Source of the DNA: Escherichia phage EcoDS1
Strand: one strand, 5' to 3'
DNA: 39,252 nucleotides
Sequence record: NC_011042.1
Shown piece by piece: positions 793 through 36,486 of the stretch. The notes beneath the pieces were generated by a model. The model searched no databases. It was not told the DNA's origin and saw only the letters and a program-made list of their open reading frames with translations. Every line of letters starts with the position of its first letter. The first letter of the stretch is position 1. The translations under genes were made by a program, and so were the position numbers.

Positions 793-989
793 ATACGGCA
801 AGCAAGATTAGTGAGTCCCAACACTGAAACGGGATAGCACGGCGACGACAGCCAATGCGAATGCTCTTTAACAATCTGGATAAACTCTTAATGTGCGCCG
901 ATAGCGACTAACTACAGGGTCTTTGAGTCTACATCTGAAGGCCCTGACTGATAGTCACTAACACATACTTAACTTTGAGAGGAAACACT

Positions 990-1474: not shown

Positions 1475-1562
1475 CTTACTGGCTGGTACTGAGTGATAGA
1501 CGAGAGGTCATCGACTGATAGGTGGCCTCAAAGATTACCACTTGCATTAATAGGAGTTAACT

Positions 1563-2335: not shown

Positions 2336-5017
2336 ATGAGCGTCATCTCTATTGACAAACACGACTTCTCTGATGTGTCGAACGCCATTGAGCCGTTTAA
2401 CCTGCTGGCTGACCACTACGGGCAAGATCTTGCAGTCAAACAGCTTCAGCTTGAGCATGAGGCATACACTGAAGGCGAGCGACGTTTCATCAAGAACCTT
2501 GAGCGCCAGACTGAGCGCGGGGAACTGGCAGACAATCAGGTCGCCAAGCCTCTTATGCAGACTCTGGTACCTAAGATTGCGCAAGCCGTCAGGGAGTGGC
2601 ATGAAGGTCCAGACGGGAAGCTGTCAACCTCTCGTCCTAGCGTAGCGTTCACCATGTTGAGCACTGAAGAGAAGGCCGTCAAGGATCGCTCTCTTCGTAT
2701 CTCTTGCGAGTCTGCTTCGGTCATCATACTGAAGGTCATACTCTCCAAGCTGGTCAAGCCTGAAGGGATACCGATTACACCGATGGCCTCCGCGATAGGT
2801 CGCACACTTGAGGATGAAATCCGCTTCGGGCGCATTCGTGACAAGGAGAAAGAGCACTTCAAGAAGGCGATAGCTGATAACCTGAACAAGCGAGCTGGGG
2901 CATCCTACAAGAAAGCCTACATGCAAGCGGTTGAGACATCCATGCTGGAGCAGGGTCAACTGGAAGATGCGTGGGGAACTTGGAGTCCTACAGAGGCTGT
3001 CCACGTTGGCATCAAGATGCTTGAGATTGTCATCCAGTCAACACAACTGGTCGAGCTTAAGCGGTACGGTGCTGGCAATGCAGCGGCTGACGTAGAGATG
3101 GTCCACCTGTCAGACTTCTGGGTCAAGAAGATGGCACAACGAGGATTCAGCCTAGCGGGTATCGCTCCAGTCTACCAGCCTTGCGTCGTTCCACCTAAGC
3201 CGTGGACTGGTGTAGTAGGCGGTGGGTACTGGGCCAAGGGTCGCAGACCACTACCACTGATTCGCTTAGGGTCTAAGTCTGCGGTGGCACGTTACGAAGA
3301 CGTGTACATGCCTGAAGTCTATGACGCTGTGAATATCATCCAGAATACACCTTGGAAAGTTAACAAGAAGGTGCTGGAAGTGGTGAACATGGTCGAGAAG
3401 CTGAACAACACGCCTATTGATGACATCCCTCAGATGGAACCGCTGAAGCCTGAAGACTATGCAGGTGAGACTGAAGAGGAACTCAAGGCATGGAAGAAGG
3501 CTGCTGCTGGTATCTACCGCCGAGAGAAGGCCCGGCAGTCACGTAGATTGTCACTAAGCTTTATCGTCAACCAAGCGAACAAGTTCTCTCAATTCAAGGC
3601 CATATGGTTTCCGTACAATATGGACTGGCGCGGCCGTGTCTACGCTGTTCCGATGTTCAACCCTCAAGGTAATGACATGCAGAAGGGCCTTCTGACTCTG
3701 GCAGTCGGTAAGCCTATTGGTGCCGATGGGTTTAAATGGCTGAAGGTCCACGGTGCAAACTGCGCGGGTATCGATAAAGTAACCTTCGAGGAGCGCATCA
3801 AGTGGGTGGAGGACAACCACGACAACATCATGGCTACTGCTAAGGCACCGATGGATAGCATTGAGTGGTGGGGCAAGTTAGACTCTCCGTTTTGCTTCCT
3901 TGCGTTCTGCTTCGAGTATGCTGGCGTGATGCATCACGGATTGTCTTACTCCTGCTCGCTGCCAATAGCTTTCGATGGGTCCTGCTCTGGGATTCAGCAC
4001 TTCAGCGCGATGCTTCGTGATCACATCGGTGGACATGCAGTAAACCTGACGCCTTCCGGTAAGGTCCAAGACATCTACCGCATCGTGTCTGACCGCATTG
4101 AGGAGGAGCTTAAAGTCCTGCTGGTTAACGGCACGGACAACGAGATGGTAACTCACGAGGACAAGAAAACTGGTGAGATTACCGAACGTCTCAAGCTGGG
4201 GACACGAGAGCTGGCCCGGCAGTGGCTTACTTACGGCATGTCACGTAAGGTCACTAAGCGTTCGGTCATGACTCTGGCCTACGGGTCGAAAGAGTATGGC
4301 TTCGCAGACCAAGTTTACGAGGACATCGTGATGCCAGCGATTGACTCAGGGTCTGGCGCTATGTTCACTGAACCAAGCCAAGCGTCTCGCTTCATGGCTA
4401 AGATGATTTGGGAAGCTGTGAGCGTGACCGTAGTTGCTGCGGTTGACGCGATGAAGTGGCTTCAAGGTGCTGCCAAGCTGCTGGCTGCTGAAGTGAAAGA
4501 CAAGAAGACTGGAGAAATCCTGAAGCCTTGCCTTCCGGTACACTGGGTCACACCTGATGGGTTCCCGGTCTGGCAGGAATACCGCAAGAAGGATACCACT
4601 CGTCTGAACCTGATGTTCTTAGGGTCATTCAACCTTCAACCTACGGTCAACAAAGGCACGAAGAAAGAGTTGGATAAGCACAAGCAGGAGTCGGGCATTA
4701 GCCCGAACTTCGTCCACTCACAAGATGGTAGCCACCTCCGCAAGACTGTAGTCCACACGCACCGCAAGTATGGCGTGATGTCATTCGCAGTGATTCACGA
4801 TAGCTTCGGGACCATCCCGGCTGACGCTGAGTATCTGTTCCGTGGTGTCCGTGAGACGATGGTCGAGACCTACCGCGACAACGATGTGCTGCTTGACTTC
4901 TACGAGCAGTTCGAATACCAGCTTCACGAGAGCCAGCGCGACAAGTTGCCTGAGCTTCCGAAGAAAGGTAAACTGAATATCGAAGACATCTTGTCTTCAG
5001 ACTTTGCATTCGCTTAA
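2336..5017 (+). CDS. T7-type single-subunit DNA-directed RNA polymerase (gp1)
   Basis: 893 aa; long stretches match T7 RNAP (CVVPPKPWTG, AIWFPYNMDWRGRVYAV, DSPFCFLAFCFEYAGV, LPIAFDGSCSGIQHFSAMLRD, HDSFGT, C-terminal FAFA). Confidence 0.98.
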   Translation: MSVISIDKHDFSDVSNAIEPFNLLADHYGQDLAVKQLQLEHEAYTEGERRFIKNLERQTERGELADNQVAKPLMQTLVPKIAQAVREWHEGPDGKLSTSRPSVAFTMLSTEEKAVKDRSLRISCESASVIILKVILSKLVKPEGIPITPMASAIGRTLEDEIRFGRIRDKEKEHFKKAIADNLNKRAGASYKKAYMQAVETSMLEQGQLEDAWGTWSPTEAVHVGIKMLEIVIQSTQLVELKRYGAGNAAADVEMVHLSDFWVKKMAQRGFSLAGIAPVYQPCVVPPKPWTGVVGGGYWAKGRRPLPLIRLGSKSAVARYEDVYMPEVYDAVNIIQNTPWKVNKKVLEVVNMVEKLNNTPIDDIPQMEPLKPEDYAGETEEELKAWKKAAAGIYRREKARQSRRLSLSFIVNQANKFSQFKAIWFPYNMDWRGRVYAVPMFNPQGNDMQKGLLTLAVGKPIGADGFKWLKVHGANCAGIDKVTFEERIKWVEDNHDNIMATAKAPMDSIEWWGKLDSPFCFLAFCFEYAGVMHHGLSYSCSLPIAFDGSCSGIQHFSAMLRDHIGGHAVNLTPSGKVQDIYRIVSDRIEEELKVLLVNGTDNEMVTHEDKKTGEITERLKLGTRELARQWLTYGMSRKVTKRSVMTLAYGSKEYGFADQVYEDIVMPAIDSGSGAMFTEPSQASRFMAKMIWEAVSVTVVAAVDAMKWLQGAAKLLAAEVKDKKTGEILKPCLPVHWVTPDGFPVWQEYRKKDTTRLNLMFLGSFNLQPTVNKGTKKELDKHKQESGISPNFVHSQDGSHLRKTVVHTHRKYGVMSFAVIHDSFGTIPADAEYLFRGVRETMVETYRDNDVLLDFYEQFEYQLHESQRDKLPELPKKGKLNIEDILSSDFAFA

Positions 5018-5567: not shown

Positions 5568-6038
5568 ATGTTCGGTAAGTCAAAACTTAAAGCACAAATC
5601 AAAGAGTTGAGCATGAAGGTGGCATACTTGGCGCGAGAAGTAAAGGTCCTAGATAACAACAATGAGAGATTGAAGGGTAAACTTGCTGAATCAGAGCGTA
5701 AGCGCCTAACGCCACCAGCGTCCGTAACTGTCAAGCGTATGGTAGGCATCAAGTTCAAGGTACTGTTCAACGGGCTGTACCAACCGACTGAGTTCAAGAC
5801 TGGACCGGGTAACTGCGGTAAGAACGTTAAGCACTTCACTACATCGAAGACTGAACGCACCATTACCATCCACCAGCACCACATAGATGGGTCTCAGAAA
5901 GACTTCGAGTACCGACTGAGCGACATCGACGGTCGAATCCAGTATGACTATGAGCAAGTTAAAGTCTACGGAGAAGAGGCCGAACGTGAGCGAGAGCTTC
6001 AGGCATTCATGCGGGTAAGGCCGCGCATCATCTTCTAA
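5568..6038 (+). CDS. Hypothetical early protein (156 aa)
   Basis: ORF track; AGAGG RBS; N-terminal charged/coiled-coil-like region; its TAA stop lies inside the following phage promoter. Confidence 0.6.
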   Translation: MFGKSKLKAQIKELSMKVAYLAREVKVLDNNNERLKGKLAESERKRLTPPASVTVKRMVGIKFKVLFNGLYQPTEFKTGPGNCGKNVKHFTTSKTERTITIHQHHIDGSQKDFEYRLSDIDGRIQYDYEQVKVYGEEAERERELQAFMRVRPRIIF

Positions 6039-6056
6039 ACTATCACTATAGGATTA
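6034..6056 (+). promoter_or_regulatory. Phage-RNAP promoter (phi1.1-like)
   Basis: CTAAACTATCACTATAGGATTAG; +1 G at 6051. Confidence 0.8.
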
Positions 6057-6061
6057 GACTC

Positions 6062-6088
6062 AAGGTCATGACTCAGAGTCGTGGCCTT
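6062..6088 (+). other. RNase III-type processing hairpin (R1.1-like)
   Basis: AAGGUCAUGAC/GUCGUGGCCUU stem of 11 bp including G-U pairs, 5-nt loop; paralogous to the hairpins at 13055 and 35950. Confidence 0.5.
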
Positions 6089-6126
6089 CATGATTAACCC
6101 TAATAAACTACTGGAGATTTAACCGT

Positions 6127-7667: not shown

Positions 7668-7703
7668 AACCCAGTGGTCTTCACGGACTGCTGGGTTTCT
7701 TTG
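7668..7703 (+). terminator. Intrinsic terminator after the early region (TE-like)
   Basis: AACCCAG...CTGGGTT stem followed by TCTTTG U-tract immediately after ligase, the position of T7 TE. Confidence 0.6.
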
Positions 7704-8723: not shown

Positions 8724-8741
8724 ACTATCACTGTAGGACAG
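8719..8741 (+). promoter_or_regulatory. Phage-RNAP promoter (phi2.5-like), variant
   Basis: CCTAAACTATCACTGTAGGACAG: one substitution (A to G at -3) relative to the consensus. Confidence 0.6.
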
Positions 8742-12879: not shown

Positions 12880-13044
12880 TTGCTAAGAAAACTTAAAGCT
12901 CGATACCATCGGTTCATGTACAAATGGTGGAGCGATGAAGCAACCTGCCTGTCGAACATTCTGGGAGACCAGCGGTTCAACTCTAAGGCATGGAAGAAAG
13001 CTAACCGTAAGTTTATGTACCACTTCTTGCGTACAGACTTATAG
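12880..13044 (+). CDS. Small basic protein (gene 4.x position)
   Basis: Open frame from 12841 (GTG); AAGGAGG at 12867..12873 favours the in-frame TTG at 12880, with an ATG at 12916 as alternative; Lys/Arg-rich. Confidence 0.4.
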   Translation: MLRKLKARYHRFMYKWWSDEATCLSNILGDQRFNSKAWKKANRKFMYHFLRTDL

Positions 13045-13054
13045 GTCTAAACTC

Positions 13055-13079
13055 AAGGTCATTCACATAGAGTGGCCTT
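13055..13079 (+). other. RNase III-type processing hairpin (R4.7-like)
   Basis: AAGGUCAUUC/GAGUGGCCUU stem, 5-nt loop; paralogue of 6062 and 35950. Confidence 0.5.
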
Positions 13080-13107
13080 TATGATTAGACTAAACGGAGG
13101 ATTAACC

Positions 13108-15999: not shown

Positions 16000-16865
16000 T
16001 GTCTGACAAGAAGATAGCTCTGGTTCTGGATGGTGACTATCTGGTATTCTCTTCTATGGCTGCGGCTGAGGATGAGACCGATTGGGGCGATGATATTTAT
16101 ACTCTGATTTGTGACCACGCCAAGGCTCGTCGTATCCTTGAGAACACCATTGCTGAAATCGTTAAGAAGCGAAAGGCGTGGAAAGACGCTAAGATTGTTA
16201 TGTGCTTCACCGATGACGTGAACTGGCGCAAGTCAATACTACCGACCTATAAGGCCAACCGTAAAGGTTCTCGCAAGCCTGTAGGATACAAGAAGTTCGT
16301 AGCCGAAGTGATGGCTGACCCACGGTTCAACAGCTTCCTACGTCCTACGCTTGAGGGTGATGACTGTATGGGTATCATCGGGACCAGACCTCAGATTGTT
16401 GGCTGTGACCATGCGGTGCTGGTATCCTGCGATAAGGACTTCAAGACCATCCCGAACTGTGAGTTCTTCTGGTTAACCACTGGTGAAATCCTGAGCCATA
16501 CGACTGCTGAGGCAGACTACTGGCACATGGAGCAAACCATCAAGGGTGACAGTACAGATGGCTACGGTGGCATTCCGGGGATGGGTGAGGATACCACTCG
16601 TGCGTTCCTTGATGAGCCGTACTACTTCGTGCAGGAGAGCCGTGAGCTTAAGACTGGTAAGAACAAAGGCCAGATTAAGACTGAGTGGAAGAAGTATCCT
16701 AAGCGTGAAGACATGACGATTTGGGACTGTATGGTGACTCTGGCTGCTAAAGCTGGGATGACCGAGGAGGAACTTCTGGTCCAAGCTCAAGTCGCTCGTA
16801 TTTGTCGAGCCTCTGACTATGACCCTAAGTCCAAGGAGGTCATCCTGTGGACACCATCCATGTAA
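15999..16865 (+). CDS. 5'-3' exonuclease (gp6)
   Basis: 288 aa; CDHAKARRILE, FTDDVNWRK, YKANRK, KPVGY, SCDKDFKTIPNCEFFW, TIKGDSTDGYGGIPG, GKNKGQ, WDCMVTLAAKAGMTEEEL match T7 gp6. Confidence 0.95.
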   Translation: MSDKKIALVLDGDYLVFSSMAAAEDETDWGDDIYTLICDHAKARRILENTIAEIVKKRKAWKDAKIVMCFTDDVNWRKSILPTYKANRKGSRKPVGYKKFVAEVMADPRFNSFLRPTLEGDDCMGIIGTRPQIVGCDHAVLVSCDKDFKTIPNCEFFWLTTGEILSHTTAEADYWHMEQTIKGDSTDGYGGIPGMGEDTTRAFLDEPYYFVQESRELKTGKNKGQIKTEWKKYPKREDMTIWDCMVTLAAKAGMTEEELLVQAQVARICRASDYDPKSKEVILWTPSM

Positions 16866-16991
16866 TTTACTGGGCCGGACTTCTGGCCCTTTACTGCATG
16901 TACAAGTGGTTCGGGTCGAACAACCGCCCTAAACACTGAGTCTAACCGATAGTCATATCCTATCAATCCAACAGTCATCCATAGGTGAAAC

Positions 16992-17014
16992 ACTAAACTA
17001 TCACTATAGGGACT
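16992..17014 (+). promoter_or_regulatory. Phage-RNAP promoter (phi6.5-like)
   Basis: CACTAAACTATCACTATAGGGACT; +1 G at 17009. Confidence 0.8.
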
Positions 17015-17075
17015 TTAGGACCTAAGATATGACTATAAGATAGACTTTAGTCTTAACTTAAAGAGGAGATTCAAG

Positions 17076-17348
17076 ATGGCTATTAATGCTATTGAAAACG
17101 TTGTTAAGCAGTTACAGGAAGAAAGACTCGATGTCCCGAACATCTCACAGTCTGCCATCCAGTTCCTGCACGTACTGTTCAACGCCAGCTACGCTGAGAA
17201 GATGGGAGCTATCAGTCTCCTCAAGCAGCAAGGCTACAGCGATGCGTTCATTGCAGGGTTCATCAAGGGTCTCCAGTATTGTTCTGACACTCTCGACTCT
17301 GCGATTGCCATGCGTCGTGAGCTGAAAGATACCGTTCAGTTCGATTAA
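17076..17348 (+). CDS. Hypothetical protein (90 aa), gene 6.5 position
   Basis: ORF track; GAGGAG RBS; positional assignment only. Confidence 0.65.
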   Translation: MAINAIENVVKQLQEERLDVPNISQSAIQFLHVLFNASYAEKMGAISLLKQQGYSDAFIAGFIKGLQYCSDTLDSAIAMRRELKDTVQFD

Positions 17349-20818: not shown

Positions 20819-20841
20819 ACTAAACTATCACTATAGGGAGA
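20819..20841 (+). promoter_or_regulatory. Phage-RNAP promoter (phi10-like), best consensus match
   Basis: CTAAACTATCACTATAGGGAGAC; initiating GGGAGA and a leader with GGTTTCCCT as in the T7 phi10 leader; AGGAGA RBS before the capsid ATG. Confidence 0.85.
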
Positions 20842-20943
20842 CCAAGAGACAGACTCAAGGTTTCCCTATTACTTCAGTCCATACGTATTGGGCGTACAGT
20901 AAGTAATAAACTTTATCTTTCAATTGAATAGGAGAATTATCAT

Positions 20944-22118: not shown

Positions 22119-22123
22119 TTGAA

Positions 22124-22161
22124 ACCCCTTGGGTGCCTTCGGGTGCTTGAGGGGTTTTTTG
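22124..22161 (+). terminator. Intrinsic terminator after the capsid gene (Tphi-like)
   Basis: CCCCTTGGGTGCC-TTCG-GGTGCTTGAGGGG hairpin with a UUCG loop followed by TTTTTT; resembles T7 Tphi. Confidence 0.8.
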
Positions 22162-25349: not shown

Positions 25350-25399
25350 AAGGGCCTATAGATTTACCTTAACTATCACTATAGGGACTATAGGCCCTT
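25350..25399. repeat. 12-bp perfect inverted repeat enclosing the phi13-like promoter
   Basis: AAGGGCCTATAG (25350..25361) and CTATAGGCCCTT (25388..25399) are exact reverse complements. Confidence 0.6.
25367..25389 (+). promoter_or_regulatory. Phage-RNAP promoter (phi13-like)
   Basis: CCTTAACTATCACTATAGGGACT; +1 G at 25384. Confidence 0.8.
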
Positions 25400-35929: not shown

Positions 35930-35949
35930 ATCTCTTAAGTGTTAGACTC

Positions 35950-35976
35950 AAGGTCATTACTGTATGTAGTGGCCTT
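35950..35976 (+). other. RNase III-type processing hairpin (R18.5-like)
   Basis: AAGGUCAUUAC/GUAGUGGCCUU 11-bp stem with G-U pairs, 5-nt loop; third paralogue. Confidence 0.5.
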
Positions 35977-36039
35977 TATGGTTAACACTAACTAGTGGAG
36001 GAGACTCTACGTGAAATCTGATAAACCGGGAGGGCACCC

Positions 36040-36486
36040 ATGCTCGAATTTTTAAAGAGAGCGGCTCCGTGGTTACTCGCAGCAGTGATGTTTGCTGGGG
36101 GCTACCACACCGCTAACAATAAGTGGGAGGCTAAGATCAATGCAGAATACACCTCGAATCTTAAGGCATCGGAGGATACAAGGCTTGCTGTCCAAGCTGA
36201 AGTCAACAAAGTGTCCAAACGGTTTCAGGACGAAATGTCATCGCTGGAAGGTAGCACTGATAGGATTATTGCTGACCTTCAGTCTGACAATAAGCGGCTG
36301 CGCATCCGAGTCAAAACTACGAGTGGAACCACGCAAAGTGACGGTCGATGCGTCATTGATGGTTACGCCGAACTTGACGAACGAGATGCTAAACGTCTTA
36401 TCGCCATCGGAGTGAAAGGAGACAAATGGATTAAGGCACTTCAGGACACTGTGAGAGCCTTACAGCAAGATAAGGAGACCCCATGA
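36040..36486 (+). CDS. i-spanin (Rz-like, gp18.5)
   Basis: 148 aa; N-terminal TM helix (WLLAAVMFAGGY) followed by charged coiled-coil-like periplasmic region; position as T7 gene 18.5. Confidence 0.85.
   Translation: MLEFLKRAAPWLLAAVMFAGGYHTANNKWEAKINAEYTSNLKASEDTRLAVQAEVNKVSKRFQDEMSSLEGSTDRIIADLQSDNKRLRIRVKTTSGTTQSDGRCVIDGYAELDERDAKRLIAIGVKGDKWIKALQDTVRALQQDKETP
36140..36415 (+). CDS. o-spanin (Rz1-like, gp18.7) embedded in the +1 frame of gp18.5
   Basis: Embedded ORF with hydrophobic stretch VALIGLLLTFSLTISGC and lipobox-like ISGC (Cys codon 36299..36301); start uncertain (ATG at 36140 after GGGAGG, but the pre-Cys region would be unusually long). Confidence 0.45.
   Translation: MQNTPRILRHRRIQGLLSKLKSTKCPNGFRTKCHRWKVALIGLLLTFSLTISGCASESKLRVEPRKVTVDASLMVTPNLTNEMLNVLSPSE

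Follow-up and report, generated by a model that had tools for sequence, protein, structure and literature searches.

The window analysed here, the whole 39,252-nucleotide stretch of Escherichia phage EcoDS1 (NC_011042.1), is a complete-looking genome of a T7-group podophage of the K1F type (Kayfunavirus). Over the first 25 kb, P762, Bas105 and other Kayfunavirus records match it at ~93-95% identity across ~93-95% of the sequence, and none of the records listed matches the genome end to end. Three conserved hairpins are encoded in intergenic positions on its + strand, where the flanking genes (as well as gene 0.3, see below) were identified by PHROG searches. Site 1 has a phage promoter upstream and a 59-aa open reading frame followed by a dGTPase inhibitor gene downstream, corresponding to the position of genes 1.1 and 1.2. 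Site 2 lies between the genes for primase/helicase (gene 4) and DNA polymerase (gene 5), the likely start codon of the latter (ATG 13108, with the Shine-Dalgarno sequence GGAGG at 13096) being 17 nt downstream of the hairpin, and site 3 lies between the genes for the small terminase (gene 18) and an Rz-like spanin (gene 18.5). The original prediction had put such hairpins before genes 1.1, 5 and 18.5, at the positions of the T7 RNase III sites R1.1, R4.7 and R18.5; the flanking genes are as claimed, and the correspondence to the T7 sites is borne out both by synteny with T7 and T3 and by the top matches of a covariance model built from T7 alone.

6034..6056, + strand: phage RNA polymerase promoter, consensus CTAAACTATCACTATAGG, with near-identical copies elsewhere; abuts and overlaps the base of hairpin 1
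6049..6102, + strand: site 1, R1.1-type hairpin; centroid fold, T7-only model match at 6044-6109, aligns with T7 and T3 R1.1
13044..13091, + strand: site 2, R4.7-type hairpin; fold, model match at 13037-13100, position as that of the T3 R4.7 stem_loop
35938..35989, + strand: site 3, R18.5-type hairpin; fold, model match at 35932-35997, in the interval between small terminase and Rz-like spanin
2254, 6044, 7735, 8729, 17002, 19823, 20829, 25377, 33050 and 38510, + strand: ten near-identical copies of the phage promoter consensus CTAAACTATCACTATAGG in the EcoDS1 genome

The ten CTAAACTATCACTATAGG copies, among which the one at 8729 carries CACTGTAGG, define the class II and class III transcription units. 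For the promoter that overlaps the base of site 1, placement by T7 promoter convention would put the +1 position at G6051. At 2254, a full phage promoter (CACTATAGG; region 2245-2340, + strand) stands directly 5' of the phage RNA polymerase gene (2336-5017), suggesting self-reinforcing transcription, and is followed by the half-motif ACTCAAGGTCT and then by two copies of AAGTGAAAGAC. The 5' leader of the capsid gene contains, just past its promoter, a hairpin (20833-20869, + strand; GGGAGACC...GGUUUCCC) of the type found in the T7 phi10 leader and the R3.8 stem. Next to site 3, the stretch 36000-36055 (+ strand) includes a strong Shine-Dalgarno sequence, GGAGGAG, and a GTG at 36011 that opens a 14-codon open reading frame, in another frame than the spanin gene and overlapping its ATG (36040), which may be a coupling or leader open reading frame.

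Architecture of the three main hairpins

In the whole genome, ACTCAAGGTCA-N(3-12)-GTGGCCTT, taken as a gapped motif, is found at exactly three places, all on the + strand (6058-6088, 13051-13079 and 35946-35976), and 0 copies in 100 dinucleotide-preserving shuffles. Each site consists of a lower stem of 7-8 bp, a 4/5-nt asymmetric internal loop and an upper stem of 10-12 bp, spanning ~50 nt overall. At site 1, the lower stem pairs 6049-6052 and 6054-6057 with 6094-6097 and 6099-6102, the internal loop is formed by ACUC (6058-6061) and CAUGA (6089-6093), and the upper stem joins 6062-6073 to 6077-6088 as 12 bp with a 3-nt loop or, alternatively, 11 bp with a 5-nt loop. At site 2, the lower stem (GGUCUAA, 13044-13050, with UUAGACU, 13085-13091) is followed by an ACUC (13051-13054)/UAUGA (13080-13084) internal loop and an upper stem of 10 bp (13055-13064 with 13070-13079) closed by the 5-nt loop ACAUA. 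At site 3, the lower stem (AGUGUUAG, 35938-35945, with UUAACACU, 35982-35989) leads to an ACUC (35946-35949)/UAUGG (35977-35981) internal loop and an upper stem of 11 bp (35950-35960 with 35966-35976) closed by the 5-nt loop UGUAU. The 5' side of the internal loop is therefore ACUC throughout, the 3' side being CAUGA, UAUGA or UAUGG at sites 1, 2 and 3, respectively, and every upper stem contains two U.G pairs. If the non-canonical C.U or C.C at proximal-box position 4 (see below) is included, the upper stems are 11-13 bp long.

The original prediction had given the hairpins as 6062..6088, 13055..13079 and 35950..35976, which are the upper stem-loops: these ranges begin 4 nt past the start of the motif, at the first A of AAGG, and leave out the remainder of the ~50-nt element. 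Its description of 10-11-bp stems with G-U pairs and 5-nt loops fits sites 2 and 3, with the 12-bp stem and 3-nt loop as the alternative at site 1. The term 'near-identical' holds for the base of the upper stem and the internal loop, which are 80-90% identical between the three copies, and not for the lower stems, which are only 44-78% identical.

RNA folding of each segment, proposed earlier as a check, yielded significant + strand structures at sites 1, 2 and 3 (-20.2, -20.0 and -23.4 kcal/mol; z -3.4, -4.7 and -4.0), with none of 200 shuffles folding as well, compared with -17.6, -11.9 and -12.5 kcal/mol (z -1.5 to -2.2) on the - strand. A scan of the whole EcoDS1 genome against Rfam gave 0 families at the gathering threshold, which is no argument against an RNase III assignment, and a sigma-70 promoter scan around the three sites gave one weak match (13062-13091), at chance rate.

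A T7-only covariance model and further sites

To avoid circularity, the covariance model was built from seven T7 sites only, with no EcoDS1 sequence, and was searched against the EcoDS1 genome with filters off. It returned the following matches:

35932-35997, + strand: R18.5 match, 53.6 bits, E 8e-11
13037-13100, + strand: R4.7 match, 52.2 bits, E 1.8e-10
6044-6109, + strand: R1.1 match, 46.2 bits, E 6.4e-9
1486-1550, + strand: R0.5-like match, 34.9 bits, E 5e-6
897-967, + strand: R0.3-like match, 29.7 bits, E 1e-4

The three main sites are thus the top matches in the genome, and the - strand of the matched regions yields just 14-16 bits. When applied to T3 (NC_003298), the model recovered, at their annotated coordinates, 8 of the 10 stem_loops annotated as 'RNase III recognition site', which validates it as a detector. 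Elements of this type are widespread, the 66-nt sequence of site 3 alone having BLAST matches in 766 phage records.

Beyond the main sites, the early region holds two diverged copies, and a non-canonical stem encloses the promoter before gene 13:

1491..1543, + strand: R0.5-like diverged site in the early region, fold -18.9 kcal/mol, z -2.4, upper stem GAGGUCAUC with GGUGGCCUC
902..960, + strand: R0.3-like diverged site, ending 15 nt 5' of the ocr-like gene 0.3 (975-1322), fold -22.9 kcal/mol, z -3.6
25350..25399, + strand: non-canonical R13-like candidate enclosing the promoter before gene 13, perfect 12-bp stem of AAGGGCCUAUAG with CUAUAGGCCCUU, fold z -2.8

Both early sites have orthologues in Bas105 and K1F, and the R0.5-like site also aligns with R0.5 of T7 and T3. 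The claim of three hairpins therefore stands for the exact motif and falls short for the element: EcoDS1 has at least five T7-type RNase III sites, the covariance model adding the diverged copies at 1486-1550 and 897-967. The stem at 25350..25399 has no covariance-model match; the T3 R13 stem_loop is likewise annotated as overlapping a promoter, phi13, and by this analogy the EcoDS1 stem is tentatively regarded as an R13-like site. Two further candidates were rejected. The R1-type candidate, downstream of the 2254 promoter at a recurrence of ACTCAAGGTCT, folds no better than shuffles (z -0.8) and has no model match at E up to 10, and the R6.5-type candidate downstream of the 17002 promoter has no significant fold (z -0.6). 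At the model threshold, EcoDS1 contains no counterparts of R1, R1.3, R3.8 or R6.5.

Covariation and conserved recognition determinants

Pairing was evaluated across 26 sites from EcoDS1, Bas105, K1F, T3 and T7, an alignment that includes the T7 sequences on which the structure is based and in which 94.3% of the cells are standard pairs, versus 74% after shuffling and 27-47% when the register is slid. Compensatory double changes affect 14 of the 19 pairs (26 sites, five phages), a level that none of 500 shuffles reaches, and all nine lower-stem pairs covary among T7, T3, K1F, Bas105 and EcoDS1. A motif scan of IMG/VR provided at least 120 stretches, mostly from contigs of 38-41 kb, in which the covariance model identified 99 sites in 80 loci. 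Among the 87 distinct sites, 93% of the cells are paired and 17 of the 19 pairs show compensatory changes, in an alignment whose sites were picked up by way of the motif and then fitted to the model. Across the 26 sites, almost no variation is seen at the base of the upper stem (A-U in 26/26, G-C in 26/26, the next G-C in 25/26 and C-G in 23/26), and the internal loop is conserved as well.

The determinants recognized by E. coli RNase III were mapped by Pertzev and Nicholson on a minimal R1.1 substrate (PMC1540722). A 4-bp proximal box adjoins the scissile bond, and G-C or C-G pairs block binding when placed at its position 2 and catalysis when placed at its position 4; a 2-bp distal box stringently requires U.G at position 2, has its optimum at U-A/U.G and tolerated no substitution without a loss of reactivity; and a helix of at least 11 bp is needed for the minimal substrate to react (PMC1540722). 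In all three EcoDS1 sites, the proximal box has G-C at position 1 and A-U at positions 2 and 3, with no antideterminant at position 2, while position 4 is a non-canonical C.U at the edge of the internal loop (C.C in site 1). The distal-box U.G is likewise present in all three (U6069.G6081, U13062.G13072 and U35957.G35969), and this wobble pair is an RNase III recognition determinant. At distal-box position 1, site 1 has G-C where the other two have U-A, and because every distal-box substitution reduced the reactivity of the minimal substrate, site 1 may be cut less efficiently. Since the proximal-box and distal-box determinants of E. coli RNase III fall on the conserved pairs (PMC1540722), the sequence of the stem is conserved beyond structural need, as the original prediction had maintained. 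The freely covarying lower stem beside near-invariant boxes amounts to a confirmation, by natural variation, of the biochemical rules established for E. coli RNase III.

Predicted processing by host RNase III

Each of the three main sites combines an irregular hairpin of about two turns, a match to the T7 profile, proximal and distal boxes, compensatory pairing and a syntenic intergenic position on the + strand. On these sequence features, the three hairpins are very probably T7-type processing signals at which host RNase III would cleave polycistronic phage transcripts, a reading that presupposes an RNase III with E. coli-like specificity. The cutting itself, the cut positions and the consequences for the stability and translation of the mRNAs, as set out below, are predictions.

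The expected bonds follow from T7, for which cleavage coordinates were reportedly given by Dunn and Studier in 1983. R0.5, R1.1, R4.7 and R18.5 were located in the T7 genome by what we take to be these coordinates, and at the positions so placed they read ...ACUCAAGGUC...GUGGCCUUYAU/GAUU, the slash marking the cut. An R1.1 derivative releases a 28-nt upper stem-loop product (PMC1540722); this product and the T3 annotation corroborate the T7 register used here, only indirectly.

Under this reading, the + strand transcript of each element would form two coaxial helices, ~20 bp in total, interrupted by the asymmetric loop (5' ACUC, 3' YAUGR). E. coli RNase III would bind the upper helix through the proximal box (C.U/C, A-U, A-U, G-C) and the distal box (U.G then U-A), and would make a single cut on the 3' strand after ...CCUUYAU, as the internal loop would distort the target site. 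By homology to T7 ...CCUUUAU/GAUU, the predicted bonds are U6091/G6092, U13082/G13083 and U35979/G35980; in the early sites, the cut would fall at ~A1532/G1533 in the R0.5-like site and at the corresponding bond in the R0.3-like site. The hairpins would be carried by read-through transcripts and, for site 1, also by transcripts from the adjacent promoter. Internal loops are known to confine RNase III cleavage to one strand, leaving a 3' hairpin that protects against 3'-5' exonucleases (PMC1540722, PMC3867540), and the upstream RNA would accordingly keep a stable 3' hairpin and resist 3' exonucleases, while the downstream messages (genes 1.1/1.2, gene 5 and gene 18.5) would gain a short, defined 5' leader, with processed 5' ends 25-35 nt before the start codons (~60 nt at site 3). 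In T7, early and late precursors are processed by RNase III, and this processing is non-essential yet improves the translation of some messages (PMC4858673). By analogy, we assume processing in EcoDS1 to be likewise nonessential while improving the translation of some messages.

Stem-loops that stabilize mRNA or modulate translation without being cleaved by RNase III, for example as 3'-exonuclease barriers at ends made by other nucleases or as elements that are bound and left uncut, would share several of these features: the stable + strand hairpins sit just 5' of ribosome-binding sites, bulge-helix-bulge variants bind RNase III without being cleaved (PMC1540722), and site 1 deviates from the canonical distal box. 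We regard such a role as very improbable, because conservation falls on the positions that RNase III needs in order to recognize and cut its substrate, the loop with the scissile bond among them, and these are identical in cleaved T7 sites, whereas a mere stabilizer needs neither the invariant AAGG/CCUU nor a conserved YAUGR loop beside a freely covarying lower stem.

Descent of the copies and module boundaries

Judged by their sequences, the sites are clearly orthologous within Kayfunavirus. Between genera, pairwise identities are as high with sites at other positions as with the positional counterpart: EcoDS1 R1.1, for instance, is closer to EcoDS1 R18.5 (0.78) than to T7 or T3 R1.1 (0.65-0.67). 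Shared descent of the copies by duplication is plausible, and the pattern is equally compatible with convergence on an RNase III optimum. In the Kayfunavirus genomes, every canonical copy except one in K1F has GGUCAU, whereas T7 is mixed. In many relatives, homology to EcoDS1 starts at ~6035, at the promoter/R1.1 cassette, the upstream gene (5568-6038) being variable, and the spread of BLAST matches reveals ~430 bp of extra sequence adjoining R4.7 in Bas105 and some other relatives (an endonuclease open reading frame in Bas105). The homology edge at the R1.1 cassette and the insertion beside R4.7 imply that the cassettes coincide with module boundaries. The uniformity of GGUCAU, the resemblance between genera and the loss of homology at the R1.1 cassette hint that promoter/RNase III cassettes also act as homology joints for the exchange or deletion of modules, with occasional conversion helping to maintain the similarity of the copies, a contribution that we consider unlikely.

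Some of these patterns could be read as conservation at the level of DNA, with the hairpins as protein-binding palindromes, cruciforms, part of an origin, or homology patches for recombination or gene conversion, and RNA folding as incidental. The T7 primary origin lies in the phi1.1A/phi1.1B region, which also holds R1.1, and the T3 origin is annotated near phi1.05; in addition, the homology of relatives starts at ~6035, some carry ~430 bp extra next to R4.7, and between genera the sites are closer to a common consensus than to their positional counterparts. The origin argument covers site 1 only, however, and all copies are co-oriented with transcription. On the other strand, the U.G pairs become C.A mismatches and the folds are much weaker, and the pairing-preserving changes in all nine lower-stem pairs are of a kind that neither DNA homology nor protein binding would select, which makes a DNA-level explanation extremely improbable. 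Two hairpins elsewhere in the genome bear on a third reading, that of transcription terminators:

7668-7697, + strand: strong terminator-like hairpin, TE-like, after the ligase gene, with UUUCUUUG directly 3'
22123-22156, + strand: strong terminator-like hairpin, Tphi-like, after the capsid gene, 15-bp stem

That host or phage RNA polymerase would terminate or pause at the three main sites is scarcely credible: they are G+C-containing intergenic hairpins followed by UUU or UUC, but the U-run is just 2-3 nt, a terminator scan around them (G+C-rich stem plus a U tract of at least 5 in 8 nt) made no terminator-like call at any, the real terminator-like hairpins of the genome look different and lie elsewhere, and essential genes such as that for DNA polymerase are located directly downstream.

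RNase III processing sites thus remain the preferred reading of the three main hairpins. This class of element is textbook knowledge, and its occurrence in EcoDS1, where it is unannotated, leaves the current understanding unchallenged. The value lies in annotation, as the records of kayfunaviruses, K1F and Bas105 for example, contain no features other than protein genes. Together with the promoters and terminators, the five sites make up a transcript map of EcoDS1 that gives the expected mRNA ends and the messages with processed 5' leaders (genes 1.1/1.2, DNA polymerase and spanin). Our literature search found no paper treating RNase III together with Kayfunavirus, and the AP5 genome paper is silent on RNase III.

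Comparison with known systems

The closest orthologues are those of the other kayfunaviruses. K1F (NC_007456) and Bas105 (PQ850601) carry hairpins, unannotated, at the same five positions as EcoDS1, and orthologous sites within Kayfunavirus are 81-100% identical, or 94-100% apart from R4.7 in Bas105. K1F differs in having two R0.3-type matches upstream of gene 0.3 (703-773 and 1026-1090), compared with one each in EcoDS1 and Bas105, and Bas105 in having its endonuclease open reading frame (16835-17236) inserted between R4.7 and gene 5.

In T7 and T3, R1.1, R4.7 and R18.5 are syntenic with the three main EcoDS1 sites. The T7 consensus (ACUCAAGGUC...GUGGCCUUYAU/GAUU) and the architecture of two helices with a 4/5-nt internal loop are common to the EcoDS1 sites, and the order of promoter then hairpin at EcoDS1 site 1 recurs as phi1.1A-R1.1 in T7 and phi1.1-R1.1 in T3. 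The upper stem and internal loop of T7 R1.1 are 100% identical to those of the EcoDS1 R4.7-type site, and the internal loop of T7 R18.5 is identical to that of the EcoDS1 R18.5-type site, whereas lower stems and apical loops differ between the two phages. As EcoDS1, unlike T7, lacks gene 4.7, its R4.7-type site stands directly before gene 5; in T3, too, R4.7 immediately precedes gene 5. T7 has ten sites, compared with the five canonical ones found in EcoDS1, and T3, which belongs to the genus Teetrevirus and has another promoter specificity, is annotated with ten, R1, R1.3 and R6.5 among them. The early region of EcoDS1 (975-2244) holds small open reading frames only, for example the ocr-like gene 0.3 (975-1322) and that of a 132-aa protein of unknown function, leaving no space for a gp0.7-type protein kinase, whereas T7 has the gp0.7 kinase, which stimulates RNase III.

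Cellular and lambda substrates of RNase III include the stems of rRNA operons, the rnc leader, the lambda N leader and sib. Like the T7-group sites, they present about two turns of double-stranded RNA to the same enzyme under the same proximal-box and distal-box rules, as is generally known and described (PMC3867540). In most of them the helix is regular, both strands are cut and no sequence consensus is shared (PMC3867540 and general knowledge). T7-group sites, by contrast, have in common a strong consensus and an internal loop by which cleavage is limited to one cut.
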